From a virus (lineage: Duplodnaviria > Heunggongvirae > Uroviricota > Caudoviricetes): 25,892 bases of DNA. The stretch lies in IMG/VR virus record IMGVR_UViG_2734482557_000001; one strand, 5' to 3'. The position numbers were made by a program, and so were the translations under genes. Shown piece by piece: positions 1 through 25,892 of this stretch. Every line of letters starts with the position of its first letter. Within the stretch, counting starts at the first letter, position 1. Under the pieces are notes generated by a model. It did not search any database, was not told the DNA's origin, and saw nothing but the letters and a program-made list of their open reading frames with translations.

Positions 1-256
1 GTTATCGCTCGCCACGGGAATATCTGCGGCAGCGGGCTTGTAATGGGTTAAGTGATAACAGATGTCTGGAAATATAGGGGCAAATCCAATCGTCGCCGTA
101 TTCCCGTATTAACAGAGACCGTAGCCCGACGGGGAACTCCTTCTGCGCGAGTGTGCGGGAATAATCAAAAACGATGCACACCGGGGTTACCGGGTACACA
201 TATTTCATCATGCCAGCGAGTCCGGTTCTGGCACGGAAGAAACCGGACGTTATGAT

Positions 257-667
257 TTAGTGCGGAAATATTTGTGTAGTGTTCTGTATGTTCTCAGTAA
301 AGAGTAATGAATTATCAAAGGTATAGTAATACCTTTTGTTTTCGTGGATATTTGTAATCCATCTGAAAACCCCTGCTGTAGCAAGATTTTTCCTGTATTC
401 GTAAAATGATAACTCTCCTGATTTGAATCCTTTTAAGGTGGCTTCTATAAGGCATTTATTTTTTGAAAATCTTACATTTACAACCTTACCCTGTCCTTTT
501 ATTAAAACCGTATTATCGTTTTCAAGAACAAGATGAATATTCTCTGTGGCTAAATAGTAAATGTAATGTGAGACATTGTGACGTTTTAGTTCAGAATAAA
601 ACCAGTGATAGTTTAAATTATTTCGCACTTTATCGAATATTTGTTTAAAAATGGCAACCTGAGCCAT
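257..667 (-). CDS. DUF1398-family prophage protein (YdfO/YbcV-like), AT-rich cargo gene
   Basis: ORF track 257..682 minus; start placed at the second ATG ([11 protein letters not shown]...), which has a GAAGG Shine-Dalgarno 7 nt upstream, giving 136 aa. Protein resembles the E. coli cryptic-prophage YdfO/YbcV family from memory. Visibly AT-rich compared with the flanking lambda-like DNA. Family assignment is from recollection, not a search. Confidence 0.55.
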
Positions 668-724
668 TGTAGTACCTTCCATGTGATATGAGGGGGCGTA
701 GTCTGCACGATTATCTAAATTGCT

Positions 725-958
725 TCAATCTGGTCTAACCTGTTTTCTGAGCAATTCAGTAATGTCACTCTTTTCTTTGTTTGCTTCAGGCGAAACTCTT
801 TTTTCTGAGCACAGTCTCCGGCGGCAGGCTTCAATGACCCAGGCTGAGAAATTCCCGGACCCTTTTTGAACAAGAGCGATGTTAATTTGTTCAATCATTT
901 GGTTAGGAAAGCGGATGTTGCGGGTTGTTGTTCTGCGGGTTCTGTTCTTCGTTGACAT
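725..958 (-). CDS. DUF3950-family small protein (YnfO/YlcI-like), possible ribbon-helix-helix fold
   Basis: 77-aa ORF starting MSTKNRTRRTTTRNIRFPNQMIEQINIAL...NFSAWVIEACRRRL, matching my recollection of YnfO/YlcI found next to Nu1 homologues in E. coli cryptic prophages. Divergently oriented to Nu1, directly upstream of cos. Confidence 0.55.
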   Translation of the reverse strand: MSTKNRTRRTTTRNIRFPNQMIEQINIALVQKGSGNFSAWVIEACRRRLCSEKRVSPEANKEKSDITELLRKQVRPD

Positions 959-1150
959 GAGGTTGCCCTGTATTCAGTGTCGCTGATTTGTATTGTCTGA
1001 AGTTGTTTTTACGTTAAGTTGATGCAGATCAATTAATACGATACCTGCGTCATAATTGATTATTTGACGTGGTTTGATGGCGTAGATGCACGTTGTGACA
1101 TGTAGATGATAATTATTATCATTTTGCGGGTCCTTTCCGGCGATCCGACA

Positions 1151-1325
1151 GGTTACGGGGCGGAAGGCGCGCGGGTTTTCGCTATTTATGACAATTTTCC
1201 GGTTTAAGGCGTTTCCGTTCTTCTTCGCCGTAACCTAATGTTTTTATTTAAAACACCCCCTGAAAAGAAAGGAAACGACAGGTGCTGAAAACGGGCTTTT
1301 TGGCCTCTGTCGTTTCCTTTCTCTG
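1151..1325 (+). promoter_or_regulatory. cos: cos site: cosN (variant 12-nt core GGGCGGAAGGCG at 1158..1169) plus cosB (R3 about 1209..1226, AT-rich IHF-type spacer, inverted 16-bp R elements at 1266..1281 and 1307..1322)
   Basis: Flanking sequence GGTTACG / CGCGGGTTTTCGCTATTTATGA and the downstream Nu1-binding R elements match the lambda left end as I recall it. The perfect inverted repeat AGAAAGGAAACGACAG / CTGTCGTTTCCTTTCT is read directly. The 12-nt core differs from lambda GGGCGGCGACCT at 5 positions. Confidence 0.8.
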
Positions 1326-1346
1326 TTTTTGTCCGTGGAATGAACA

Positions 1347-1866
1347 ATGGAAGTCAACAAAAAGCAGCTGGCTGACATTTTCGGTGCGAGTATCCGTACC
1401 ATTCAGAACTGGCAGGAACAGGGAATGCCCGTTCTGCGAGGCGGTGGCAAGGGTAATGAGGTGCTTTATGACTCTGCCGCCGTTATAAGATGGTATGCCG
1501 AAAGGGATGCTGAAATTGAGAACGAAAAGCTGCGCCGGGAAGTTGAAGAACTGCGGCAGGCCAGCGAGACAGATCTCCAGCCAGGGACTATTGAGTACGA
1601 ACGCCATCGACTTACGCGTGCGCAGGCCGACGCACAGGAGCTGAAAAATGCCAGAGACTCCGCTGAAGTGGTGGAAACCGCATTCTGTACTTTCGTGCTG
1701 TCGCGGATCGCAGGTGAAATTGCCAGTATTCTCGACGGGATCCCCCTGTCGGTGCAGCGGCGTTTTCCGGAACTGGAAAACCGACATGTTGATTTCCTGA
1801 AACGGGATATCATCAAAGCCATGAACAAAGCAGCCGCGCTGGATGAACTGATACCGGGGTTGCTGA

Positions 1867-1892
<26 letters not shown>
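1347..1892 (+). CDS. nu1: terminase small subunit gpNu1
   Basis: 181 aa; MEVNKKQLADIFGASIRTIQNWQEQGMPVLRGGGKGNEVLYDSAAV... is essentially identical to lambda Nu1; sits just downstream of cosB. Confidence 0.97.
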
Positions 1893-5573
<3,681 letters not shown>

Positions 5574-5593
<20 letters not shown>

Positions 5594-6893
5594 TCTCCCG
5601 CATATTGCCAGCATGGCTTTTAATGAGCCGCTGATGCTTGAACCCGCCTATGCGCGGGTTTTCTTTTGTGCGCTTGCAGGCCAGCTTGGGATCAGCTGCC
5701 TGACGGATGCAGTATCCGGCGACAGCCTGACTGCCGGAGAGGCACCCGCGGCGCTGGCGTTATCCGGTGATGATGACGGACCACGACAGGCCCGCAGTTA
5801 TCAGGTAATGAACGGCATCGCCGTGCTGCCGGTGTCCGGCACGCTGGTCAGCCGGACGCGGGCGCTGCAGCCGTACTCGGGGATGACCGGTTACAACGGC
5901 ATTATCGCCCGTCTGCAACAGGCTGCCAGCGACCCGATGGTGGACGGCATTCTGCTCGATATGGACACACCGGGCGGAATGGTGGCGGGAGCATTTGACT
6001 GCGCTGACATCATCGCCCGTGTGCGTGACATAAAGCCGGTATGGGCGCTGGCCAATGACATGAACTGCAGCGCAGGTCAGCTGCTTGCCAGTGCCGCCTC
6101 CCGGCGTCTGGTCACGCAGACCGCCCGGACAGGCTCCATCGGCGTCATGATGGCTCACAGTAATTACGGCGCTGCACTGGAGAAACAGGGCGTGGAAATC
6201 ACGCTGATTTACAGCGGCAGCCATAAGGTGGATGGCAACCCCTACAGCCATCTACCGGATGATGTCCGGGAAACATTGCAGTCCCGGATGGATGCAACCC
6301 GCCGGATGTTTGCACAGAAGGTGTCGGCATATACCGGCCTGTCCGTGCAGGCTGTGCTGGATACCGAGGCTGCAGTGTACAGCGGTCAGGAGGCCATTGA
6401 TGCCGGACTGGCTGATGAACTTGTTAACAGTACCGATGCGATCACCGTCATGCGTGATGCACTGGATGCACGTAAATCCCGTCTCTCAGGAGGGCGAATG
6501 ACCAAAGAGACTCAATCAACAACTGTTTCAGCCACTGCTTCGCAGGCTGACGTTACTGGCGTGGTGCAAGCGACGGAGGGCGAGAACGCCAGCGCGGCGC
6601 AGCCGGACGTGAACGCGCAGATCACCGCAGCGGTTGCGGCAGAAAACAGTCGCATTATGGGGATCCTCAACTGTGAGGAGGCTCACGGACGCGAAGAACA
6701 GGCACGCGTGCTGGCCGAAACCCCCGGTATGACCGTGGAAACGGCCCGCCGTATTCTGGCCGCAGCACCACAGAGTGCACAGACGCGCAGTGACACTGCG
6801 CTGGATCGTCTGATGCAGGGGGCACCGGCACCGCTGGCTGCAGGTAACCCGGCATCTGATGCCGTTAACGATTTGCTGAACACACCAGTGTAA
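5574..6893 (+). CDS. C: head maturation protease / scaffold gpC
   Basis: GTG start at 5574 preceded by GAGGAGGAGAAG; product (M)TAELRNLPHIASMAFNEPLMLEPAYARVFF... matches lambda gpC. The ORF-track start at 5439 is an upstream in-frame extension inside B and is not used. Confidence 0.9.
6288..6893 (+). CDS. nu3: scaffolding protein gpNu3, nested in-frame in the 3' part of C
   Basis: In lambda Nu3 is translated in the C frame from an internal start and shares the C stop. An in-frame ATG (MDATRRMFAQKVSAY...) lies at the expected distance, 606 nt from the stop. Confidence 0.6.
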   Translation: MDATRRMFAQKVSAYTGLSVQAVLDTEAAVYSGQEAIDAGLADELVNSTDAITVMRDALDARKSRLSGGRMTKETQSTTVSATASQADVTGVVQATEGENASAAQPDVNAQITAAVAAENSRIMGILNCEEAHGREEQARVLAETPGMTVETARRILAAAPQSAQTRSDTALDRLMQGAPAPLAAGNPASDAVNDLLNTPV

Positions 6894-6902
6894 GGGATGT
6901 TT

Positions 6903-7235
6903 ATGACGAGCAAAGAAACCTTTACCCATTACCAGCCGCTGGGCAATAGTGACCCGGCTCATACCGCAACCGCGCCCGGCGGATTGAGTGCGAAAGCGCC
7001 TGCAATGACCCCGCTGATGCTGGACACCTCCACCCGTAAGCTGGTTGCGTGGGATGGCACCACCGACGGTGCTGCCGTTGGCATTCTTGCGGTTGCTGCT
7101 GACCAGACCAGCACCACACTGACGTTCTACAAGTCCGGCACGTTCCGTTATGAGGATGTGCTCTGGCCGGAGGCTGCCAGCGACGAGACGAAAAAACGGA
7201 CCGTGTTTGCCGGAACGGCAATCAGCATCGTTTAA
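6903..7235 (+). CDS. D: head decoration protein gpD
   Basis: 110 aa [41 protein letters not shown]...; AAGGGA Shine-Dalgarno; near-identical to lambda D. Confidence 0.96.
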
Positions 7236-7290
7236 CTTTACCCTTCATCACTAAAGGCCGCCTGTGTGGCTTTTTTTACGGGATTTTTTT

Positions 7291-8316
7291 ATGTCGATGT
7301 ACACAACCGCCCAGCTGCTGGCGGCAAATGAGCAGAAATTTAAGTTTGATCCGCTGTTTCTGCGTCTCTTTTTCCGTGAGAGCTATCCCTTCACTACGGA
7401 GAAAGTCTATCTCTCACAAATTCCGGGACTGGTAAACATGGCGCTGTACGTTTCGCCGATTGTTTCCGGTGAGGTTATCCGTTCCCGTGGCGGCTCCACC
7501 TCTGAATTTACGCCGGGATATGTCAAACCCAAGCATGAGGTGAATCCGCAGATGACCCTGCGTCGCCTGCCGGATGAAGATCCGCAGAATCTGGCGGACC
7601 CGGCTTACCGCCGCCGTCGCATCATCATGCAGAACATGCGTGACGAAGAGCTGGCCATTGCTCAGGTCGAAGAGATGCAGGCAGTTTCTGCCGTGCTCAA
7701 GGGCAAATACACCATGACCGGTGAAGCCTTCGATCCGGTTGAGGTGGATATGGGCCGCAGTGCGGCGAACAACATCACACAGTCCGGCGTCACGGAGTGG
7801 AGCAAGCGTGACAAGTCCACGTATGACCCGACCGACGATATCGAAGCCTACGCGCTGAACGCCAGCGGTGTGGTGAATATCATCGTGTTTGACCCGAAAG
7901 GCTGGGCGCTGTTCCGTTCCTTCAAAGCCGTCAAGGAGAAGCTGGATACCCGTCGCGGCTCTCATTCCGAGCTGGAGACAGCGGTAAAAGACCTGGGCAA
8001 AGCGGTGTCCTATAAGGGAATGTATGGCGATGTGGCCATCGTCGTGTATTCCGGACAGTACGTGGAAAACGGCGTCAAAAAGAACTTCCTGCCGGACAAC
8101 ACGATGGTGCTGGGGAACACTCAGGCTCGCGGTCTGCGCACCTATGGCTGCATTCAGGATGCGGACGCACAGCGCGAAGGCATTAACGCTTCTGCCCGTT
8201 ACCCGAAAAACTGGGTGACCACCGGCGATCCGGCGCGTGAGTTCACCATGATTCAGTCAGCACCGCTGATGCTGCTGGCTGATCCTGATGAGTTCGTGTC
8301 CGTTCAACTGGCGTAA
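7291..8316 (+). CDS. E: major capsid protein gpE
   Basis: 341 aa MSMYTTAQLLAANEQKFKFDPLFLRLFFRESYPFTTEKVYLSQIPGLVNMALYVSPIVSGEV...; near-identical to lambda E. Confidence 0.97.
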   Translation: MSMYTTAQLLAANEQKFKFDPLFLRLFFRESYPFTTEKVYLSQIPGLVNMALYVSPIVSGEVIRSRGGSTSEFTPGYVKPKHEVNPQMTLRRLPDEDPQNLADPAYRRRRIIMQNMRDEELAIAQVEEMQAVSAVLKGKYTMTGEAFDPVEVDMGRSAANNITQSGVTEWSKRDKSTYDPTDDIEAYALNASGVVNIIVFDPKGWALFRSFKAVKEKLDTRRGSHSELETAVKDLGKAVSYKGMYGDVAIVVYSGQYVENGVKKNFLPDNTMVLGNTQARGLRTYGCIQDADAQREGINASARYPKNWVTTGDPAREFTMIQSAPLMLLADPDEFVSVQLA

Positions 8317-8357
8317 TCATGGCCCTTCGGGGCCATTTTCTCTCTGTGGAGGAGTTC

Positions 8358-8756
8358 ATGACGAAAGATGAACTGATTGCCCGTCTTCAGGAGCTGGGTG
8401 AGCAATTGAACCGCGATGTCAGTTTGACGGGAACGAAAGAAGAACTGGCGCTTCGTGTGGCAGAGCTGGAAGAAGAGCTTGATGACACGGATGAAACTGC
8501 CGGTCAGGACACCCCTCTCAGCCGGGAAAATGTGCTGACCGGGCATGAAAATGAGGTGGTATCAGCGCAGCCGGATACCGTGATTCAGGATACGGCTGAA
8601 CTGGTCACGGTCGTGGCACTGGTGACGCTGCATACTGATGCACTTCACGCCACGCGGGATAAACCTGTGGCATTTGTGCTGCCGGGAACGGCGTTTCGTG
8701 TCTCTGCCGGTGTGGCAGCCGAAATGACAGAGCGCGGCCTGGCCAGAATGCAATAA
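8358..8756 (+). CDS. FI: DNA packaging protein gpFI
   Basis: 132 aa MTKDELIARLQELGEQLNRDVSLTGTKEELALRVAELEEELDDTDE...; GGAGGAG Shine-Dalgarno; lambda FI-like. Confidence 0.95.
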   Translation: MTKDELIARLQELGEQLNRDVSLTGTKEELALRVAELEEELDDTDETAGQDTPLSRENVLTGHENEVVSAQPDTVIQDTAELVTVVALVTLHTDALHATRDKPVAFVLPGTAFRVSAGVAAEMTERGLARMQ

Positions 8757-8767
8757 CGGGAGGCGCT

Positions 8768-9121
8768 GTGGCTGATTTCGATAACCTGTTCGATGCTGCC
8801 ATTGCCCGCGCCGATGAAACGATACGCGGGTACATGGGAACGTCAGCCACCATGACATCCGGTGAGCAGTCAGGTGCGGTGATACGTGGTGTTTTTGATG
8901 ACCCTGAAAATATCAGCTATGCCGGACAGGGCGTGCGCGTTGAAGGCTCCAGCCCGTCCCTGTTTGTCCGGACTGATGAGGTGCGGCAGCTGCGGCGTGG
9001 AGACACGCTGACCATCGGTGAGGAAAATTTCTGGGTAGATCGGGTTTCGCCGGATGATGGCGGAAGTTGTCATCTCTGGCTTGGACGGGGCGTACCGCCT
9101 GCCGTTAACCGTCGCCGCTGA
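8768..9121 (+). CDS. FII: head-tail connector / head completion protein gpFII
   Basis: GTG start; 117 aa (M)ADFDNLFDAAIARADETIRGYMGTSATMTSGEQSGAVIRGVFDDPENISYAGQG...; lambda FII-like. Confidence 0.95.
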   Translation: MADFDNLFDAAIARADETIRGYMGTSATMTSGEQSGAVIRGVFDDPENISYAGQGVRVEGSSPSLFVRTDEVRQLRRGDTLTIGEENFWVDRVSPDDGGSCHLWLGRGVPPAVNRRR

Positions 9122-9132
9122 AAGGGGGATGT

Positions 9133-9711
9133 ATGGCCATAAAAGGTCTTGAGCAGGCCGTTGAAAACCTCAGCCGTATCAGCAAAACGGCGGTGCCCGG
9201 TGCCGCCGCAATGGCCATTAACCGCGTTGCTTCATCCGCGATATCGCAGTCTGCGTCACAGGTTGCCCGTGAGACAAAGGTACGCCGGAAACTGGTAAAG
9301 GAAAGGGCCAGGCTGAAAAGGGCCACGGTCAAAAATCCGCAGGCCAGAATCAAAGTTAACCGGGGGGATTTGCCCGTAATCAAGCTGGGTAATGCGCGGG
9401 TTGTCCTGTCCCGCCGCAGGCGTCATAAAAAGGGGCAGCGTTCATCCCTGAAAGGTGGCGGCAGCGTGCTTGTGGTGGGTAACCGTCGTATTCCCGGCGC
9501 GTTTATTCAGCAACTGAAAAACGGCCGGTGGCATGTTATGCAGCGTGTGGCCGGGAAAAACCGTTACCCCATTGATGTGGTGAAAATCCCGATGGCGGTG
9601 CCGCTGACCACGGCGTTTAAACAGAATATTGAACGGATACGGCGTGAACGTCTTCCGAAAGAGCTGGGCTATGCGCTGCAGCATCAACTGAGAATGGTAA
9701 TAAAGCGATGA
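9133..9711 (+). CDS. Z: tail completion protein gpZ
   Basis: 192 aa MAIKGLEQAVENLSRISKTAVPGAAAMAINRVASSAISQSASQVARETKVRRKL...; lambda Z-like. Confidence 0.95.
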   Translation: MAIKGLEQAVENLSRISKTAVPGAAAMAINRVASSAISQSASQVARETKVRRKLVKERARLKRATVKNPQARIKVNRGDLPVIKLGNARVVLSRRRRHKKGQRSSLKGGGSVLVVGNRRIPGAFIQQLKNGRWHVMQRVAGKNRYPIDVVKIPMAVPLTTAFKQNIERIRRERLPKELGYALQHQLRMVIKR

Positions 9712-15172: not shown

Positions 15173-15422
15173 NNNNNNNNNNNNNNNNNNNNNNNNNNNN
15201 NNNNNNNNNNNNNNNNNNNNNNNNNNNNNNNNNNNNNNNNNNNNNNNNNNNNNNNNNNNNNNNNNNNNNNNNNNNNNNNNNNNNNNNNNNNNNNNNNNNN
15301 NNNNNNNNNNNNNNNNNNNNNNNNNNNNNNNNNNNNNNNNNNNNNNNNNNNNNNNNNNNNNNNNNNNNNNNNNNNNNNNNNNNNNNNNNNNNNNNNNNNN
15401 NNNNNNNNNNNNNNNNNNNNNN
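15173..15422. other. assembly gap (250 N) spanning the L 3' end and K 5' end
   Basis: Run of N; flanks are in recognisable L and K frames. Confidence 0.99.
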
Positions 15423-16669: not shown

Positions 16670-19600
16670 ATGGGTAAAGGCAGCAGTAAGGGGCATACCC
16701 CGCGCGAAGCGAAGGACAACCTGAAGTCCACGCAGCTGCTGAGTGTGATCGATGCCATCAGCGAAGGGCCGGTTGAAGGTCCGGTGGATGGATTAAAAAG
16801 CGTGCTGCTGAACAGTACGCCGGTGCTGGACAATGAGGGGAATACCAACATCTCCGGCGTCACGGTGGTGTTCCGGGCAGGTGAGCAGGAGCAGTCACCG
16901 CCGGAGGGGTTTGAATCCTCCGGCTCCGAGACGGTGCTGGGTACGGAAGTGAAATATGACACGCCGATCACCCGGACCATCACGTCGGCAAACATCGACC
17001 GTCTGCGCTTTACCTTCGGTGTACAGGCACTGGTGGAAACCACCTCAAAGGGAGACAGGAATCCGTCGGAAGTCCGCCTGCTGGTTCAGATACAGCGTAA
17101 CGGTGGCTGGGTGACGGAAAAAGACATCACCATTAAGGGCAAAACCACCTCGCAGTATCTGGTCTCGGTGNNNNNNNNNNNNNNNNNNNNNNNNNNNNNN
17201 NNNNNNNNNNNNNNNNNNNNNNNNNNNNNNNNNNNNNNNNNNNNNNNNNNNNNNNNNNNNNNNNNNNNNNNNNNNNNNNNNNNNNNNNNNNNNNNNNNNN
17301 NNNNNNNNNNNNNNNNNNNNNNNNNNNNNNNNNNNNNNNNNNNNNNNNNNNNNNNNNNNNNNNNNNNNNNNNNNNNNNNNNNNNNNNNNNNNNNNNNNNN
17401 NNNNNNNNNNNNNGGGTGACGGAAAAAGACATCACCATTAAGGGCAAAACCACCTCGCAGTATCTGGCCTCGGTGGTGGTGGATAACCTGCCGCCGCGCC
17501 CGTTTAATATCCGGATGCGCAGAATGACGCCGGACAGCACCACAGACCAGCTGCAGAACAAAACGCTCTGGTCGTCATACACCGAAATCATCGATGTGAA
17601 ACAGTGCTACCCGAACACGGCACTGGTCGGCGTACAGGTGGATTCGGAGCAGTTCGGCAGCCAGCAGGTGAGCCGTAATTATCATCTTCGCGGGCGCATT
17701 CTGCAGGTGCCGTCGAACTATAATCCGCAGACGCGGCAATACAGCGGTATCTGGGACGGAACGTTAAAACCGGCATACAGCAACAACATGGCCTGGTGTC
17801 TGTGGGATATGCTGACCCATCCGCGCTATGGCATGGGGAAACGTCTTGGTGCGGCAGATGTGGATAAATGGGCGCTGTATGTCATCGGCCAGTACTGTGA
17901 CCAGNNNNNNNNNNNNNNNNNNNNNNNNNNNNNNNNNNNNNNNNNNNNNNNNNNNNNNNNNNNNNNNNNNNNNNNNNNNNNNNNNNNNNNNNNNNNNNNN
18001 NNNNNNNNNNNNNNNNNNNNNNNNNNNNNNNNNNNNNNNNNNNNNNNNNNNNNNNNNNNNNNNNNNNNNNNNNNNNNNNNNNNNNNNNNNNNNNNNNNNN
18101 NNNNNNNNNNNNNNNNNNNNNNNNNNNNNNNNNNNNNNNNNNNNNNNNNNNNNNNNNNNNNNNNNNNNNNNNNNNNNNNNNNNNNNNNNNNNNNNNNNNN
18201 NNNNNNACTGGATTGACCCGGATAACGGCTGGGAGACGGCGACAGAGCTTGTGGAGGATACGCAGGCCATTGTCCGTTACGGTCGTAACGTCACGAAGAT
18301 GGATGCCTTTGGCTGTACCAGCCGGGGGCAGGCACACCGCGCCGGGCTGTGGCTGATTAAAACGGAACTGCTGGAGACGCAGACCGTGGATTTCAGCGTG
18401 GGTGCTGAAGGGCTTCGTCATGTACCGGGCGATGTCATTGAAATCTGCGATGATGACTATGCCGGTATCCGCACCGGCGGGCGCGTGCTGGCGGTGAACA
18501 GCCAGACCCGGACGCTGACGCTCGACCGTGAAATCACGCTGCCATCCTCCGGCACCACGCTGATAAGCCTGGTTGACGGGCAGGGGAATCCGGTCAGCGT
18601 GGAGGTCCAGTCCGTCACCGACGGCGTGAAGGTAAAAGTGAGCCGTGTTCCTGACGGTGTTGCTGAATACAGCGTGTGGGGGCTGAAGCTGCCGACGCTG
18701 CACCAGCGATTGTTCCGCTGCGTGNNNNNNNNNNNNNNNNNNNNNNNNNNNNNNNNNNNNNNNNNNNNNNNNNNNNNNNNNNNNNNNNNNNNNNNNNNNN
18801 NNNNNNNNNNNNNNNNNNNNNNNNNNNNNNNNNNNNNNNNNNNNNNNNNNNNNNNNNNNNNNNNNNNNNNNNNNNNNNNNNNNNNNNNNNNNNNNNNNNN
18901 NNNNNNNNNNNNNNNNNNNNNNNNNNNNNNNNNNNNNNNNNNNNNNNNNNNNNNNNNNNNNNNNNNNNNNNNNNNNNNNNNNNNNNNNNNNNNNNNNNNN
19001 NNNNNNNNNNNNNNNNNNNNNNNNNNNNNNGCTGACAGTCCGGGCAGTAAATGCGTGGGGGCAGCAGGGCGATCCGGCGTCGGTATCGTTCCGGATTGCC
19101 GCACCGGCAGCGCTGTCGCGGATTGAGCTGACGCCGGGCTATTTTCAGATAACCGCCACGCCGCATCTTGCGGTTTATGATCCGACGGTACAGTTTGAGT
19201 TCTGGTTCTCGGAAAAGCGGATTGCGGATATCAGGCAGGTTGAAACCACAGCACGCTATCTTGGCACGGCGCTGTACTGGATAGCCGCCAGTATCAATAT
19301 CAAACCGGGCCATGATTATTACTTTTATATCCGCAGTGTGAACACCGTTGGCAAATCGGCATTCGTGGAGGCTGTTGGTCAGCCGAGTGATGATGCATCC
19401 GGTTATCTGGATTTTTTCAAAGGCGAGATAGGGAAAACCCATCTGGCTCAGGAGCTGTGGACGCAGATTGATAACGGTCAGCTTGCGCCTGACCTGGCTG
19501 AAATCAGGACGTCCATTACGGATGTCAGCAATGAAATCACGCAGACCGTCAATAAGAAACTGGAAGACCAGAGTGCGGCAATTCAGCAGATACAGAAGGT

Positions 19601-20462
19601 TCAGGTTGATACAAATAATAACCTGAACAGCATGTGGGCTGTGAAGCTGCAGCAGATGCAGGACGGACGCCTTTATATCGCGGGTATTGGTGCCGGTATT
19701 GAGAACACCCCTGACGGCATGCAGAGTCAGGTGCTGCTGGCGGCGGACAGGATTGCGATGGTTAATCCTGCGAATGGCAACACAAAACCGATGTTTGTTG
19801 GTCAGGGCGATCAGATATTCATGAACGACGTGTTCCTGAAACGCCTGACGGCCCCCACCATTACCAGCGGTGGAAATCCATCGGCATTTTCCCTGACTCC
19901 GGACGGAAAGCTGACCGCTAAAAATGCGGATATCAGTGGCAGTGTGAATGCGAACGCCGGGACGCTCAACAATGTCACGGTAAATGAAAACTGTACGATT
20001 AAGGGCATGCTGGAGGCGACTCAGGTCAGAGGTGACTTCGTTAAAGCTGTATCCAAATCATTTCCGAAACAGGCTGGTACGTGGGGTAACACGGAAACAC
20101 CAAACGGGACGGTTACAGTCACCATAAGCGATGATCATAACTTTGACCGCCAGATTATTATTCCGCCCATTATTTTTAACGGTATAGCGTATGACGATCC
20201 GGGGAGCGGAAATAACCCAGGAGGCACGCGATACACGGGTTATGGTTTTGAAGTTCGCAAAAACGGCGTATTAATCGCATCCAGAGAAACTAAAGGTGCC
20301 ATTCCCGGTAGTTACAGTGCAGTTATTGATATGCCTAGTGGTGGTGGTAGCGTCACTCTGGAGTTTAAGATTTTCCAGAAAGGCAATCAGGGGGCAGGCA
20401 ATATCACCGACTGTACGGTGATTGTGACCAAAAAAGCGGCTTCCGGCATCAGTATTCGTTGA
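16670..20462 (+). CDS. J: central tail fibre / host specificity protein gpJ (three internal N-run gaps; C-terminal receptor-binding region diverged from lambda)
   Basis: N-terminus [54 protein letters not shown]... and internal segments match lambda J. The ORF is continuous in recognisable lambda J segments between gaps at 17171..17413, 17905..18206 and 18725..19030. Sequence after ...YLDFFKG departs from my recollection of lambda J. Confidence 0.92.
17171..17413. other. assembly gap (243 N) in J, flanked by a 62-nt direct duplication
   Basis: Run of N; 17109..17170 and 17414..17475 are identical except for one base. Confidence 0.99.
17905..18206. other. assembly gap (302 N) in J
   Basis: Run of N; the gap length does not preserve the J reading frame, so the size is an estimate. 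Confidence 0.99.
18725..19030. other. assembly gap (306 N) in J
   Basis: Run of N. Confidence 0.99.
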
Positions 20463-20484
20463 AATATTTATAACCCCAATAAAT

Positions 20485-20509
20485 GGCGTCAGGAATGACG
20501 CCTTTTTTA
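20485..20509 (+). terminator. intrinsic terminator downstream of J
   Basis: Hairpin GGCGTCA-GGAA-TGACGCC followed by TTTTTTA, read directly. Confidence 0.7.
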
Positions 20510-20532
20510 TTGCAGAAAAGCGAGAGGTAATT

Positions 20533-21339
20533 ATGCGTAAAGTTTGTGCAGCCATTTTGTCCGCAGCCATTTGCCTGGCCGTATCCGGTGCGCCTGCATG
20601 GGCGTCTGAACATCAGTCCACGCTGAGCGCGGGGTATCTTCATGCCCGGACCAACGTTCCCGGCAGTGATGATCTGAACGGGATTAACGTGAAATACCGT
20701 TATGAGTTTACGGATACGCTGGGGCTGGTGACGTCATTCAGCTATGCAGGAGACAAGAATCGCCAGCTGACCCGTTACAGCGATACCCGCTGGCATGAAG
20801 ATTCCGTTCGTAACCGCTGGTTCAGCGTAATGGCGGGGCCGTCTGTGCGCGTGAATGAATGGTTCAGCGCGTATGCGATGGCGGGTGTGGCTTACAGCCG
20901 TGTGTCGACTTTCTCCGGGGATTATCTCCGCGTAACTGACAACAAGGGGAAAACGCACGACGTGCTGACCGGAAGTGATGACGGTCGCCACAGCAACACG
21001 TCTCTGGCGTGGGGAGCTGGCGTGCAGTTTAACCCGACCGAATCCGTGGCCATTGATATTGCTTATGAAGGCNNNNNNNNNNNNNNNNNNNNNNNNNNNN
21101 NNNNNNNNNNNNNNNNNNNNNNNNNNNNNNNNNNNNNNNNNNNNNNNNNNNNNNNNNNNNNNNNNNNNNNNNNNNNNNNNNNNNNNNNNNNNNNNNNNNN
21201 NNNNNNNNNNNNNNNNNNNNNNNNNNNNNNNNNNNNNNNNNNNNNNNNNNNNNNNNNNNNNNNNNNNNNNNNNNNNNNNNNNNNNNNNNNNNNNNNNNNN
21301 NNNNNNNNNNNNNNNNNNNNNNTCGGTTATAAATTCTGA
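20533..21339 (+). CDS. lom: Lom outer-membrane protein (Ail/Lom/PagC family), interrupted by an N-run gap
   Basis: MRKVCAAILSAAICLAVSGAPAWASEHQSTLSAGYLHARTNVPGSDDLNGINVKYRYEFTDTLGLVTSFSYAGDKNRQ... matches lambda Lom including the signal peptide. After the gap the frame ends GYKF-stop as in Lom. GAGAGG Shine-Dalgarno upstream. Confidence 0.9.
   Translation: MRKVCAAILSAAICLAVSGAPAWASEHQSTLSAGYLHARTNVPGSDDLNGINVKYRYEFTDTLGLVTSFSYAGDKNRQLTRYSDTRWHEDSVRNRWFSVMAGPSVRVNEWFSAYAMAGVAYSRVSTFSGDYLRVTDNKGKTHDVLTGSDDGRHSNTSLAWGAGVQFNPTESVAIDIAYEGXXXXXXXXXXXXXXXXXXXXXXXXXXXXXXXXXXXXXXXXXXXXXXXXXXXXXXXXXXXXXXXXXXXXXXXXXXXXXXXXXXXXGYKF
21073..21322. other. assembly gap (250 N) in lom
   Basis: Run of N; a lambda-like Lom needs only about 45-60 nt here, so the N length is not the true length. 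Confidence 0.99.
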
Positions 21340-21365
21340 TTAGCCAGGTAACACAGTGTTATGAC

Positions 21366-21392
21366 AGCCCGCCGGTTCAGGCGGGCTTTTTT
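21366..21392 (+). terminator. intrinsic terminator downstream of lom
   Basis: Perfect 8-bp stem AGCCCGCC-GGTTCA-GGCGGGCT followed by TTTTTT. Confidence 0.8.
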
Positions 21393-21403
21393 GTGGGGTG
21401 AAT

Positions 21404-24400
21404 ATGGCAGTAAAGATTTCAGGTGTACTGAAAGACGGCACAGGAAAACCGGTACAGAACTGCACAATCCAGCTGAAAGCAAAACGTAACAGCACCACGG
21501 TGGTGGTGAACACGCTGGCCTCAGAAAATCCGGATGAAGCCGGGCGTTACAGCATGGACGTTGAGTACGGTCAGTACAGCGTTATTCTGTTGGTGGAAGG
21601 ATTCCCGCCGTCACATGCCGGGACCATCACCGTGTATGAAGATTCCCGACCCGGTACGCTGAATGATTTTCTCGGTGCCATGACGGAGGATGATGCCCGT
21701 CCGGAGGCACTGCGCCGTTTTGAGCTGATGGTGGAAGAGGTGGCGCGTAACGCGTCCGCGGTGGCACAGAACACGGCAGCCGCGAAGAAATCAGCCAGCG
21801 ATGCCAGCACATCAGCCCGTGAGGCGGCAACCCATGCGACTGATGCTGCAGATTCAGCACGTGCAGCCAGCACGTCAGCCGGACAGGCCGCTTCGTCGGC
21901 TCAGTCAGCGTCTTCCAGCGCAGGAACGGCATCAACAAAGGCCACTGAAGCCTCAAAAAGTGCTGCCGCTGCAGAGTCCTCAAAAAGCGCGGCGGCTACC
22001 AGTGCCGGTGCGGCGAAAACGTTAGAAACGAATGCGGCAGCGTCACAACAATCAGCAGCCACTTCTGCATCCACCGCGACCACGAAAGCGTCAGAAGCTG
22101 CCACCTCAGCCCGGGATGCGTCGGCTTCAAAAGAGGCGGCAAAATCATCAGAAACGAACGCATCATCAAGCGCCAGTAGCGCAGCTTCCTCGGCGACGGC
22201 GGCTGCAAATTCTGCGAAGGCGGCCAAAACGTCCGAGACGAACGCCAGGTCTTCTGAAACGGCAGCGGGACAGAGTGCCTCAGCTGCGGCAGGCTCAAAA
22301 ACNNNNNNNNNNNNNNNNNNNNNNNNNNNNNNNNNNNNNNNNNNNNNNNNNNNNNNNNNNNNNNNNNNNNNNNNNNNNNNNNNNNNNNNNNNNNNNNNNN
22401 NNNNNNNNNNNNNNNNNNNNNNNNNNNNNNNNNNNNNNNNNNNNNNNNNNNNNNNNNNNNNNNNNNNNNNNNNNNNNNNNNNNNNNNNNNNNNNNNNNNN
22501 NNNNNNNNNNNNNNNNNNNNNNNNNNNNNNNNNNNNNNNNNNNNNNNNNNNNGGCGTCATCGGCATCATCGGCGTCTGCTTCAAAAGATGAGGCGACCAG
22601 ACAGGCGTCAGCAGCGAAGGGCAGCGCCACGACGGCATCCACGAAGGCGACAGAGGCTGCTGGTAGTGCGACGGCAGCAGCTCAGAGCAAAAGTACGGCG
22701 GAATCTGCAGCAACGCGCGCTGAGACAGCGGCAAAACGGGCAGAGGATATTGCATCCGCCGTGGCGCTTGAGGATGCGAGCACGACGAAAAAGGGGATAG
22801 TACAGCTCAGTAGTGCGACTAACAGCACTTCCGAGTCACTGGCGGCAACACCAAAAGCCGTTAAGGCCGCGTATGACCTGGCTAACGGGAAATACACCGC
22901 ACAGGATGCAACGACAGCACAGAAAGGGATAATCCAGCTAAGCAGCGCGACCAACAGCACGTCTGAAACGCTGGCGGCAACGCCAAAGGCAGTAAAAGCA
23001 GCCAATGACAATGCTGAGAAACGTCTGCAGAAAGATCAGAACGGTGCGGATATCCCTGGCAAAGACACCTTTACGAAAAATATTGGTGCCTGCCGTGCCT
23101 TCGGTGGGTCAGTAAGCACAACAACAGGAAACTGGACGACTGCACAGTTTATCGAGTGGCTGGATTCTCAGGGAGCATTTAACCATCCATACTGGATGTG
23201 CAAGGGTTCCTGGTCTTATGGCAATAATAAAATCATTACTGATACTGGCTGCGGTAATATTCATCTCGCCGGAGCTGTCATTGAAGTAATGGGGATAAAG
23301 TCAGCGATGACGATCCGCATTACCACTCCGACCACATCCAGCGGTGGCGGAACAACCAACGCCCAGTTTACCTATATTAATCACGGAACAGATTATTCAC
23401 CTGGCTGGCGAAGGGACTATAACTCCAGAAATAAGCCAACGGCATCAGAGATCGGGGCGCTACCGTCAGGTGGAACAGCAGTATCATCAGTTAATCTGGC
23501 TTCAAAAGGTCGGGTAGCCGCGCTGACAGACAATACGCAGGGGGCAGCAGGTCTTGAGTTATACGAGGTGTATAACAACGGATATCCAACAGCGTATGGA
23601 AATATCATTCACCTGAAAGGGATGACAGCCGTTGGCGAAGGTGAGTTACTCATCGGCTGGAGTGGTACAAGCGGTGCTCATGCTCCGGCATTTATTCGTT
23701 CACGACGGGATACGACCGACGCAAACTGGTCGCCGTGGGCGCAGCTTTACACCTCGGCTCATCCTCCTGCAGAGTTTTATCCAGTCGGTGCACCAATCCC
23801 GTGGCCATCAGATACCGTTCCGTCTGGTTATGCCCTGATGCAGGGGCAGACTTTTGACAAATCTGCTTACCCGAAACTTGCAGCCGCTTATCCGTCAGGC
23901 GTGATCCCTGATATGCGTGGCTGGACGATTAAGGGCAAGCCCGCCAGTGGTCGTGCCGTATTGTCTCAGGAACAGGATGGCATTAAATCGCACACCCACA
24001 GCGCCAGCGCATCCAGTACGGATTTGGGGACGAAAACCACATCGTCGTTTGATTACGGCACTAAATCCACGAATAACACCGGGGCGCATACGCACAGTCT
24101 GAGCGGCTCTACAAGTTCAGCTGGGGCCCACCAACATAGTCAGACTGGGCCCAGAACGAATAGCGGGAGTCAACCTACTGGAATGTTTCCGGCAGGGAGT
24201 ACTCAAGTTAGCGGGACTAATCAGGTTGGTATCAGTGGCTCATTAACCAGTGGCACCTCCCAATGGGTAGGTAAATCATCTTCAGAAGGAAACCATACAC
24301 ACTCACTGTCCGGCACAGCAGCATCTGCGGGTGCACACGCGCATACTGTCGGTATTGGTGCTCATACGCACTCTGTTGCGATTGGTTCACATGGACACAC

Positions 24401-24479
24401 CATCACCGTTAACGCTGCTGGTAACGCGGAAAACACCGTCAAAAACATCGCATTTAACTATATTGTGAGGCTCGCATAA
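21404..24479 (+). CDS. stf: side tail fibre protein Stf (mosaic; interrupted by an N-run gap inside an Ala/Ser-rich repeat region)
   Basis: N-terminus [60 protein letters not shown]... matches lambda Stf. C-terminus ...[61 protein letters not shown] matches the lambda Stf tip. The frame is open on both sides of the gap; continuity across it cannot be verified. Confidence 0.88.
22303..22552. other. assembly gap (250 N) in the Ala/Ser-rich repeat region of stf
   Basis: Run of N inside low-complexity, GC-rich repetitive coding sequence. Confidence 0.99.
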
Positions 24480-25060
24480 TGGCATTCAGAATGAGTGAAC
24501 AAGCACGGACCATAAAAATTTATAACCTGCTGGCCGGAACTAATGAATTTATTGGTGAAGGTGACGCATATATTCCGCCTCATACAGGTCTGCCTGCAAA
24601 CAGTACCGATATTGCACCGCCAGATATTCCGGCTGGTTTCGTGGCTGTTTTCAACAGTGATGAGTCATCGTGGCATCTCGTTGAAGATCATCGGGGTAAA
24701 ACGGTTTATGACGTGGCTTCCGGCGACGCGTTATTTATTTCTGAACTCGGCTCATTACCGGAAAATGTCACCTGGTTATCCCCGGAAGGGGAGTTTCAGA
24801 AGTGGAACGGCACAGCCTGGGTGAAGGATACGGAAGCAGAAAAACTGTTCCGGATCCGGGAGGCGGAAGAAACAAAAAACAGCCTGATGCAGGTAGCCAG
24901 TGAGCATATAGCGCCGCTTCAGGATGCTGTGGATCTGGAGATCGCAACGGAGAAAGAAACCTTGTTGCTGGAAGCTTGGAAAAAGTATCGGGTGTTGCTG
25001 AACCGTGTTGATACATCAACTGCACCGGATATTGAATGGCCAGTAGCACCTATAGGGTAA
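24479..25060 (+). CDS. tfa: tail fibre assembly chaperone Tfa
   Basis: 193 aa [74 protein letters not shown]...; the ATG overlaps the stf stop by one nucleotide (TAATG). Confidence 0.95.
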
Positions 25061-25145
25061 ATTCGTAATGATTACCTAAATACGTTATTCTTTTGTTAAA
25101 AAAGTGATTTTGCTATAGGTAGGGAGTATGTTCTTGGATTAAGAA

Positions 25146-25176
25146 TAAAAAATCGCCATGAAAGAGCTTCATGGCG
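25146..25176 (-). terminator. strong intrinsic terminator for leftward (minus-strand) transcription
   Basis: Perfect 9-bp stem CGCCATGAA / TTCATGGCG with a 5-nt loop at 25154..25176; read on the minus strand it is followed by a T-run (plus-strand AAAAAA at 25146..25153). Confidence 0.65.
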
Positions 25177-25809
25177 AGTACATAAACGTACAAAATGTGA
25201 TGAAAGTAGAGTGGCGTAAGCCACTATATTAAGATATGACAATAGCGAAGAAAAGTAAATAACATTTTATGGACGTTTAATTGTTAATTATAAAAACTAG
25301 AGTGCCCGATATTGTTTATCTTGCTTTAAAATAATGTACTCAAACCAAATTTTTGAGCTAAAAGCTCAAATAATATAAATGCAATAATAATGTTTAATAA
25401 GACAATTAGCTTGCTTTGTATTTTCATTTCGGAATACTGTTAAGTAACTTTGATGACCCTAACAATAGATCGGAATTTTCTTAGAGTCAATGGTCACTGT
25501 TTTTGCTTGCAAAGCAAATGTTTTGGTGGTTATAAGTCGTCTTAATATAGTCACGCATGCAACTTGTTCCATGCGGAGATTAAAGATTGGAATATAACGC
25601 GAAGATGGAATTAAATTACATTTGCAATAATTAATTTATTATTACTCAATAATTACCGATATTATTATTGTAAATTAATCATTAGAATGCAAAAAGAAAT
25701 GTAACGGCAAAATAAGAGGACGATAGCTGAGAAAAAAGCGTGCTTTCCCAATCTGGGGCAAATCACGTCTGAATGACACCTGAAAACAGGTGGTAGCCTC
25801 AAGAAGGCT

Positions 25810-25892
25810 GGTGATGCTGCCAACTTACTGATTTAGTGTATGATGGTGTTTTTGAGGTGCTCCAGTGGCTTCTGTTTCTATCAGCTGTCCCT
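25810..25892 (+). mobile_element. IS1 left end (terminal inverted repeat GGTGATGCTGCCAACTTACTGAT...), truncated by the window edge
   Basis: The 83 nt from 25810 to the window end match the IS1 left terminus as I recall it, including the start of insA. Confidence 0.85.
25864..25892 (+). CDS. insA: IS1 InsA, 5' fragment (GTG start; M-A-S-V-S-I-S-C-P...), continues beyond the window
   Basis: GTG GCT TCT GTT TCT ATC AGC TGT CCC at the expected offset from the IS1 inverted repeat. Confidence 0.7.

Follow-up and report, generated by a model that had tools for sequence, protein, structure and literature searches.

The distal part of gene J in this prophage raises a question about host range: does the tip of the central tail fiber carry a domain foreign to phage lambda, and which outer membrane protein would it recognize? 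A first-pass annotation of the window (the whole 25,892-nt stretch of DNA analyzed here) proposed that the C terminus of J is a non-lambda module, acquired by exchange at the fiber tip, that targets a receptor other than LamB. Our analysis leads to a related but more conservative reading. The distal central fiber of this lambda-like prophage very probably consists of two exchangeable alleles arranged around a conserved joint, a phi458/cdtI-type shaft and a 434-type, OmpC-specific tip.

Gene J and the continuity of its 3' end

Gene J lies where it would be expected in a lambda-like genome, after the M-L-K-I tail tip genes and before lom-stf-tfa (Table 1), and gene order in the window follows that of PhiR42_1 all the way from Nu1 to tfa, with ~96% identity. 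The sequenced pieces of J are all lambda-J-like, with 95 to 97% DNA identity to PhiR42_1 J. Every piece can be read through in one open frame, and the frame changes at the three N-runs inside the gene (17171-17413, 17905-18206, and 18725-19030). These shifts are uninformative, since the lengths of the runs differ from those of the reference: the six N-runs in the window comprise 250, 243, 302, 306, 250, and 250 N, where the reference predicts 242, -62, 274, 344, 43, and 258 nt. As three runs interrupt its upstream part, J can be regarded as only putatively intact in the window. The region at issue, 19380-20462, lies within gap-free sequence (19031-21072). All the J peptide strings quoted in the first-pass annotation were found there in frame 0; nt 19379 is the last base of the final G codon in ...SAFVEAVG, and nt 20462 is the last base of the J stop codon. 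The Pfam domains in the C-terminal part follow the order Ig_J (weak), Ig_J_second, Phage_Tail_Tip (E = 2.3e-31), and Ig_GpJ_C.

Table 1. Features of the J region and the genes downstream of it in the window
Feature	Coordinates	Strand	Remarks
Gene J, tail tip attachment/central tail fiber protein	16670..20462	+	Four sequenced pieces, N-runs between them
Segment A, lambda-like: end of the first Ig/FNIII-like domain and whole second domain	19032..19379	+	Ig_J_second aa 29-129, E = 1.4e-38
Segment B, corresponding to the lambda alpha-helical shaft (AHS) and upper beta-prism (CSF)	19380..19817	+	phi458-type allele
Segment C, conserved block FMND...SGSVNAN	19818..19955	+	Lambda aa 924-969
Segment D, beta-prism base, Ig-like receptor-binding domain, and stop codon	19956..20462	+	434-type allele
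lom, Ail/Lom outer membrane protein	20533..21337	+	Pfam Ail_Lom, E = 7e-109; N-run 21073-21322 inside
stf, side tail fiber	21404..24479	+	Pfam phage_tail_N, Phage_fiber_2, Collar; N-run 22303-22552 inside
tfa, tail fiber assembly protein	24479..25060	+	Pfam Caudo_TAP; lambda orf-194 93% identical

A window broken by six gaps whose lengths disagree with the reference could be misassembled, and the 2-kb contig carrying the J C terminus could have come from another lambdoid prophage in the same genome and been scaffolded here. The flanks of the 17171-17413 run share a 62-nt overlap containing a single mismatch, as in unresolved repeat contigs, and E. coli genomes with J-like sequence have a median of two such places. 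However, the continuous sequence 19031-21072 spans 349 nt of lambda-like J upstream as well as lom downstream, and an IMG/VR contig (L041) that is N-free in the examined stretch matches the window pieces over 18314-25892 at 100% or 99.7% with their order kept. A 40-mer taken from the AT-rich sequence downstream of tfa had exact matches in 44 IMG/VR contigs, none of which is the window itself, and in no species-representative genome. Complete genomes also hold an intact 1165-aa gpJ with the C terminus found in the window. We therefore regard such an artifact as unlikely, and even if it had occurred, the identity of the modules would be unchanged.

Divergence from lambda J by segment

We aligned J with lambda J (NP_040600). 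As the first-pass annotation had noted, the protein is lambda-like up to ...SAFVEAVG and again in the conserved block: segment A is identical at 112 of 116 aa (96.6%) and segment C at 45 of 46 aa (97.8%). The other two segments are unlike lambda, segment B with 61 of 118 identical aa (51.7%) plus 28 gap columns and segment D (19956-20459) with 67 of 157 (42.7%) plus 17 gap columns. In segment B, there is a net 28-aa insertion relative to lambda at about nt 19470-19559; the lambda AHS corresponds to lambda aa 809-861 (domain boundaries from PMC11101478). At the DNA level, identity to lambda in 60-nt windows drops from 1.00 at 19299-19358 to 0.05 at 19479-19538, returns to 0.95 to 0.98 at 19809-19958, and lies between 0.32 and 0.67 from ~19990 to the stop codon. 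The drop in GC content that had been remarked on at the 3' end of J is also present: segment D has a GC fraction of 0.478 (GC3 of 0.476), compared to 0.556 to 0.612 in the other sequenced J pieces and 0.544 in the whole window.

While these values bear out the divergence, they do not make the segments foreign. A phmmer search against the PDB aligned query aa 177-475 with chain J of 8iyk at an E value of 2.7e-86; homology to lambda J remains clear in the divergent parts, and what had been recorded as the lack of a match thus reflects a diverged allele and not an unrelated sequence. The last 136 aa of J (nt 20049-20456) match Ig_GpJ_C (PF12421) with an E value of 1e-25, over profile positions 1-134 of 135 and with 90.8 bits (cut-off, 26.2). 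An AlphaFold2 (AF2) monomer model of the receptor-binding domain (pLDDT of 79.4) adopts the gpJ fiber fold; in a Foldseek search of the PDB, its best four matches were 8xck, 9wcb, 9wca, and 8xcj (E = 5e-15 to 3.5e-14; query-normalized TM of 0.68), with 41% identity for lambda gpJ (8xck/8xcj) and 47% for A8 gpJ (9wca/9wcb). Lambda gpJ (P03749; PDB 8iyk; 8xck and 8xcj with LamB) has the same domain order and fold as the protein in the window; it differs in a shaft that is 28 aa shorter and in a receptor-binding domain that is ~41 to 43% identical, with three loop indels, and its receptor is LamB (PMC11101478). Since domain family and fold match those of lambda, the J tip is a divergent allele of lambda's own domain, and the change amounts to an allele swap in which no foreign domain was gained. 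The earlier claim of a non-lambda module was, in this respect, overstated.

The second protein among the structural matches, the A8 gpJ chimera (PDB 9wca; 9wcb with OmpC of E. coli EDL933), is an engineered fusion and not a natural phage J: its Ig-like domain is joined to lambda J in block C. Use of OmpC by this chimera was shown experimentally (Brodel et al., PMC11338833). The A8 domain is another allele, with 47 to 50% identity to the window and without the GTWGNT loop; the natural cluster that corresponds to A8 (P0052) is likewise at ~50%.

A 434-type tip and its predicted receptor

Alignment with the J proteins of lambdoid phages, which the first-pass annotation had proposed as a check, gave low tip identity to lambda but placed phages 434 and phi458 close. 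Segment D and phage 434 J (UMO75286, OL657226) are identical at 158 of 168 aa (94%) without a gap. Segment D carries all three 434 indels relative to lambda, including the shortened C-terminal loop, and the two proteins have all loop lengths in common. In the AF2 model, the gap columns relative to lambda are concentrated in predicted loops, and the indels map to loops and hairpins. Judged by its sequence, then, the J tip is of the phage 434 (h434) allele type. Gene context is alike in 434 and the window (I, J, lom, and side fiber), although the side tail fiber and the genes downstream differ, and the 434 shaft is short and lambda-type, with 52.5% aa identity to segment B and 28 gap columns.

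The receptor of phage 434 J is OmpC (PMC3509688, PMC11101478, PMC12502783), and lambda given the 434 tail fiber gene in place of J also uses OmpC (PMC3509688, PMC11101478). Lambda, 434, and phi330 have receptor-binding domains that are 35 to 40% identical and descend from a common ancestor (PMC12502783). Because of the 94% identity to 434 J and these published genetics, we infer that the tip binds OmpC, and the prophage is predicted to be OmpC-dependent and LamB-independent. The receptor switch foreseen in the first-pass annotation is thus supported at the level of sequence, and it would be of practical use in predicting the host range of this prophage. The bottom loops of the tip trimer would most likely dock onto OmpC, itself a trimeric porin, and not onto LamB; docking may trigger tail opening in the manner worked out for lambda.

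Two other assignments deserve consideration. That the C terminus is in fact a lambda-type, LamB-binding domain would agree with its Pfam family and fold, which are those of the lambda receptor-binding domain. Yet segment D is only 42.7% identical to NP_040600, with 17 gap columns and indels in predicted loops, while it is 94% identical to the J of the OmpC-using 434; a strong match to lambda J aa 970-1132 is absent from the window. We consider a LamB-binding tip extremely improbable.

The second assignment concerns specificity within the 434 type. Ten of the 168 positions of segment D are substituted relative to 434 J. Seven of these lie inside the Ig domain, including one in a predicted loop, where the residue is Gly in the window and Arg in 434 (KGNQ-G-AGNI and KGNQ-R-AGNI, respectively). 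Phage phi458 has the 434-like KVFHKGNQRAGNI; the window sequence differs there. On account of these substitutions, the range of OmpC alleles accepted by the tip could differ from that of 434. A stronger version of this idea is that the tip, although 434-like, binds a subset of OmpC alleles or another porin, such as OmpF, and not K-12 OmpC. Several of the seven Ig-domain substitutions adjoin predicted loops that bear indels relative to lambda; two OmpC-binding gpJ chimeras, A8 and 1A2, differ in the OmpC variants that they accept (PMC11338833), and lambda J reaches OmpF through point mutations (PMC11101478). On the other hand, the 434 loop lengths are all kept in a segment 94% identical to 434 J, and the exact Ig-domain sequence is a common natural variant (protein cluster P0001, 624 members) and not an unusual escape variant. 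A shifted specificity therefore appears unlikely, and use of OmpC in the manner of 434 is the reading we prefer. In a Nature 2026 paper that used ECOR13, which the PhiR phage records name as their host, J types are not assigned to receptors.

Shaft, joint, and reassortment

The nearest relatives of the two divergent segments differ. At the aa level, segment B and phi458 (OP434518) share 100% identity, compared with 52.5% for 434, and segment D is 97.0% identical to phi458 and 94% to 434. Over about 19300-20140, the window DNA matches phi458 at 100%; over about 20140-20350, it is 98 to 100% identical to 434 but only 83 to 97% identical to phi458, indicating fine-scale mosaicism. Other combinations exist among database proteins: the long-shaft allele is found with an A8-like tip (P0105) and with other tips (P0061, P0093), and the lambda-type shaft is found with a 434-type tip (P0005, phage 434) and with another tip (P0055). 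Since segments B and D have different nearest relatives and alternative pairings occur, module exchange at the fiber tip, as suggested in the first-pass annotation, is supported by these comparisons.

Block C, which separates the two segments, is likely the recombination joint. It holds lambda aa 964, the G of DISGSVNAN, at which engineered gpJ chimeras have been fused; natural variants of the sequence beyond this residue switch the receptor from LamB to OmpC (PMC11338833). The near-identical FMND...SGSVNAN sequence would let homologous recombination join different shafts and tips, and homologous recombination is presumably the mechanism of exchange. The prophage would provide a clean natural case of the J joint used for retargeting lambda particles.

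On the proximal side of the joint, segment B would form a phi458/cdtI-type helical shaft and upper beta-prism, extending 28 aa beyond those of lambda. The AF2 monomer model of the shaft and prism (pLDDT of 49) predicts a helix, a break, and a long helix, a weak hint that the insertion may be helical. A heptad count on the shaft was uninformative (best-register hydrophobic fraction of 0.44, compared to a background of 0.37). The lambda shaft refolds upon receptor binding (PMC11101478). It is conceivable that the longer shaft and the 434-type tip form a co-adapted unit, with the Gly-for-Arg change shifting the OmpC alleles accepted; if so, the longer shaft would alter fiber reach or trigger mechanics. 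We give this idea little credence and favor free reassortment, since each shaft type pairs with several tip types.

The pairing of a long shaft with a 434-type tip is common. It occurs in the 1165-aa J of phi458, cdtI (NC_009514), ev099, Ayreon, mEp332, and PhiR42_1, and in the gpJ of many E. coli prophages, such as WP_111738617 (strain LD93-1). Over 19031-20462, phi458 is 97.3% identical to the window and the other named phages are about 95 to 96% identical; for the LD93-1 gpJ, identity over nt 19380-20462 reaches 98.5%. The window differs from J of the phi458 group by point differences only. Coverage of the 1.4-kb region 19031-20462 reaches at least 80% in 25 phage records, the top-ranked of which are 94 to 97% identical. 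Of 5426 complete E. coli genomes, 1164 reach that level of coverage for nt 19380-20462, with a best identity of 98.5%. Knowledge of the h434 host range goes back to the 1970s, and the swap is textbook material. Because this host range is long known, because the allele pair is present in deposited phages, and because at least 80% coverage of the region is reached in about one-fifth of complete E. coli genomes, the 434-type tip on J represents a common, already described module swap and no new biology.

Downstream of J, lom occupies the same position as in lambda, 434, phi458, and PhiR42_1. An IMG/VR locus (L022), where the J 3' end and lom appear three times in tandem, was considered as a possible host-range cassette array and was rejected, since the single N characters between the copies mark joined contigs. 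In the side tail fiber gene, the C-terminal 252 aa of the product are 70% identical to lambda orf-314.

Sequence and fold of the J C-terminus

The window corresponds to the late-gene arm of a lambda-like prophage and is collinear from Nu1 to tfa with phage PhiR42_1 at ~96% DNA identity. Its tail-tip gene J is interrupted by three N-runs, and the C-terminal region that the first-pass annotation had singled out as non-lambda, 19380-20462, sits within an N-free stretch (19031-21072), flanked there by 349 nt of conserved J on its upstream side and by the beginning of lom downstream. The translation of nt 19032-20459 (476 residues) was aligned with J proteins from annotated records of lambda (NP_040600), phage 434 (UMO75286), and phi458 (UYE91775). 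The alignment bore out the coordinates, quoted peptides, and breakpoints of the annotation, leaving segment D only 42.7% identical to lambda. Scanned in 60-nt windows, the DNA matches lambda fully at 19299-19358 (identity, 1.00), hardly at all at 19479-19538 (0.05), and closely again at 19809-19958 (0.95-0.98); beyond ~19990, values are 0.32-0.67. The low GC noted at the 3' end of J is real (0.478 in segment D), because the other sequenced J pieces reach 0.556-0.612.

Features of the window, with amino acid identity to three J proteins for segments A to D
Feature	Coordinates	Lambda	phi458	434	GC	Remark
J	16670-20462					+ strand
N-run	15173-15422					250 nt; 242 nt in PhiR42_1
N-run in J	17171-17413					243 nt; -62 nt in PhiR42_1
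N-run in J	17905-18206					302 nt; 274 nt in PhiR42_1
N-run in J	18725-19030					306 nt; 344 nt in PhiR42_1
N-run	21073-21322					250 nt; 43 nt in PhiR42_1
N-run	22303-22552					250 nt; 258 nt in PhiR42_1
62-nt repeat	17109-17170, 17414-17475					flanks an N-run
Segment A	19032-19379	96.6%	99.1%	98.3%	0.555	to ...SAFVEAVG
Segment B	19380-19817	51.7% + 28 gap columns	100%	52.5% + 28 gap columns	0.509	
Segment C	19818-19955	97.8%	97.8%	91.3%	0.536	...SGSVNAN
Segment D	19956-20459	42.7% + 17 gap columns	97.0%	94.0%	0.478	to stop
stf	21404-24479					
AT-rich stretch	25061-25809				~0.29-0.34	between tfa and IS1
IS1 end	25810-25892					

The description of this module as non-lambda goes too far: its sequence has diverged from lambda J but is not foreign. 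A phmmer search against the PDB aligned residues 177-475 with lambda gpJ 838-1131 (E = 2.7e-86 for the stretch), and the Pfam order Ig_J_second, Phage_Tail_Tip, Ig_GpJ_C is that of lambda, with Ig_GpJ_C matched over its full profile at aa 340-475 (90.8 bits; cut-off, 26.2). An AlphaFold2 model of the last 177 residues, built from an alignment of 25 natural variants, is an all-beta domain (pLDDT 79.4). A Foldseek search of the PDB with this model ranked four gpJ fibre structures highest: the lambda central fibre in its closed (8xck) and LamB-bound (8xcj) forms, at 41% identity, and the fibre of A8, an engineered OmpC-binding gpJ chimera, in its closed (9wca) and OmpC-bound (9wcb) forms, at 47%; structure prediction thus returned the fold of the gpJ fibres. 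Insertions and deletions relative to lambda, one of them a shorter loop ahead of the final strand, map to predicted loops and hairpins of the receptor-binding domain, whose bottom loops L1-L4 enter LamB in lambda (PMC11101478).

Receptor of the tip

By sequence, segment D is the phage 434 allele: 158 of its 168 residues are identical to 434 J, without gaps and with every loop length in common. The receptor of phage 434 is OmpC, and the 434 fibre gene confers OmpC binding when it replaces J in lambda (PMC3509688, PMC11101478); Hantke 1978 is the source cited for this receptor in bioRxiv 10.1101/2022.09.30.509847. The 434 central fibre has been termed OmpC targeting, and the receptor-binding domains of lambda, 434, and phi330 are 35-40% identical and descend from one ancestor (PMC12502783). 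The different receptor predicted by the first-pass annotation would therefore be OmpC, which we infer from the homology of segment D to 434 J. Since the tip matches the 434 allele and 434 uses OmpC, the best-supported reading is that a trimeric Ig-like tip would dock on the OmpC trimer, and that docking would trigger tail opening as in lambda. At seven Ig-domain positions the window departs from 434, one being a Gly in place of Arg in KGNQ(G/R)AGNI, and two OmpC-binding gpJ chimeras differ in the OmpC variants that they accept (PMC11338833); the sequence thus does not tell which OmpC alleles this tip would accept.

The observation on the J tip is correct but ordinary, and was already known. 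Over the 1.4-kb region 19031-20462, identity is 97.3% to phi458 and 95-96% to cdtI, ev099, Ayreon, ev243, mEp332, and PhiR42_1, and coverage reaches 80% or more in 25 phage records. Of the 5426 complete E. coli genomes, 1164 match nt 19380-20462 over 80% or more of its length (best match, 98.5%); there the product is annotated "phage attachment tail tip protein J," and the exact Ig-domain sequence occurs in a database protein cluster of 624 member sequences (P0001). Moreover, h434 is a classical host-range marker, and one deposited record (H34) is titled "Lambda h434 imm21."

Shaft and tip exchange across segment C

Mapped onto the lambda fibre structure (PMC11101478), segment B is the counterpart of the alpha-helical shaft (lambda aa 809-861) together with the uppermost part of the beta-sheet prism. 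Segment C (lambda aa 924-969) makes up the lower prism, and segment D the prism base and receptor-binding domain. The 28-residue excess over lambda falls in the shaft. Modelled as a monomer, this region gave a poor result (pLDDT 49) but had one helix at 23-47 and, after a brief interruption, a long one at 53-96, suggesting that the shaft is likely helical and longer than that of lambda; counting heptads there was not informative (best-register hydrophobic fraction 0.44, background 0.37).

The proposed module exchange is supported by the nearest relatives of the two divergent segments, since segment B is identical to phi458 and only 52.5% identical to 434, while segment D is close to both. At the DNA level, the window and phi458 do not differ over ~19300-20140, and over ~20140-20350 phage 434 is the closer of the two (98-100%, against 83-97% for phi458). 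Shaft and tip alleles also occur in other combinations among database proteins: the long shaft is found with an A8-like tip (cluster P0105) and with other tips (P0061, P0093), and the lambda-type shaft with a 434-type tip (P0005 and phage 434) and with yet another (P0055). The joint always falls within segment C, as does lambda residue 964, the G of DISGSVNAN, after which lambda gpJ was replaced in the engineered chimeras (PMC11338833). Homologous recombination inside this near-identical block would be the natural explanation of the exchange.

Assembly gaps and the region downstream of J

The N-runs look like scaffold gaps whose sizes were estimated, not like length-preserving masks; their lengths are unequal to the PhiR42_1 equivalents, and the K/I, J, lom, and stf frames therefore shift across them. 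The 62 nt flanking the first N-run in J on either side are the same except for one T/C mismatch (V/A in the encoded peptide) and are single copy in lambda and PhiR42_1. This region looks like a scaffold gap between short repeat contigs, and the repeat suggests overlapping contig ends from two J copies of a multi-prophage strain, not a real duplication. Given these flanks and the mismatched lengths, frame changes are uninformative on the intactness of J. The record could itself be a chimeric scaffold, yet IMG/VR contig L041, N-free in the aligned stretch, is 100% or 99.7% identical to the window pieces in 18314-25892, with order kept, and an intact 1165-aa J with the same C-terminus is present in complete genomes and phages.

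The L041 alignment ends at window position 21009 and has 23 nt before resuming at 21323, versus 106 nt in PhiR42_1; either L041 thus has a shorter lom 3' end, or one assembly has collapsed it. Another IMG/VR record (IMGVR_UViG_2698536366_000004, reverse complement 1-9274) has the J 3' end and lom three times in succession, 88-89%, 89%, and 99.6% identical to the window. A cassette array was rejected here, because single N characters separate the copies and mark the joins between three prophage contigs from a single draft genome.

Apart from its N-run, stf is a single long gene, while that of laboratory lambda is frameshifted. The last 252 aa of its product share 70% identity with lambda Stf but diverge between the His-x-His repeats. 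Lambda Stf binds OmpC; if this stf product also does so, the side and central fibres of the phage would share one porin. The 750-nt AT-rich stretch beyond tfa contains no ORF of more than 52 codons, stands in place of the Pin-type recombinase region of PhiR42_1 and E. coli LD93-1, and is exactly conserved in 44 IMG/VR contigs; an exact 40-mer taken from it had no match among species-representative genomes. The window ends within the IS1 terminal inverted repeat (GGTGATGCTGCCAACTTACTGATTTAGTGTATGATGG...), and the arrangement of tfa, AT-rich spacer, and IS1 recurs in 280 E. coli genomes at 99.5% identity, the matching stretch being annotated as an IS1A family transposase.
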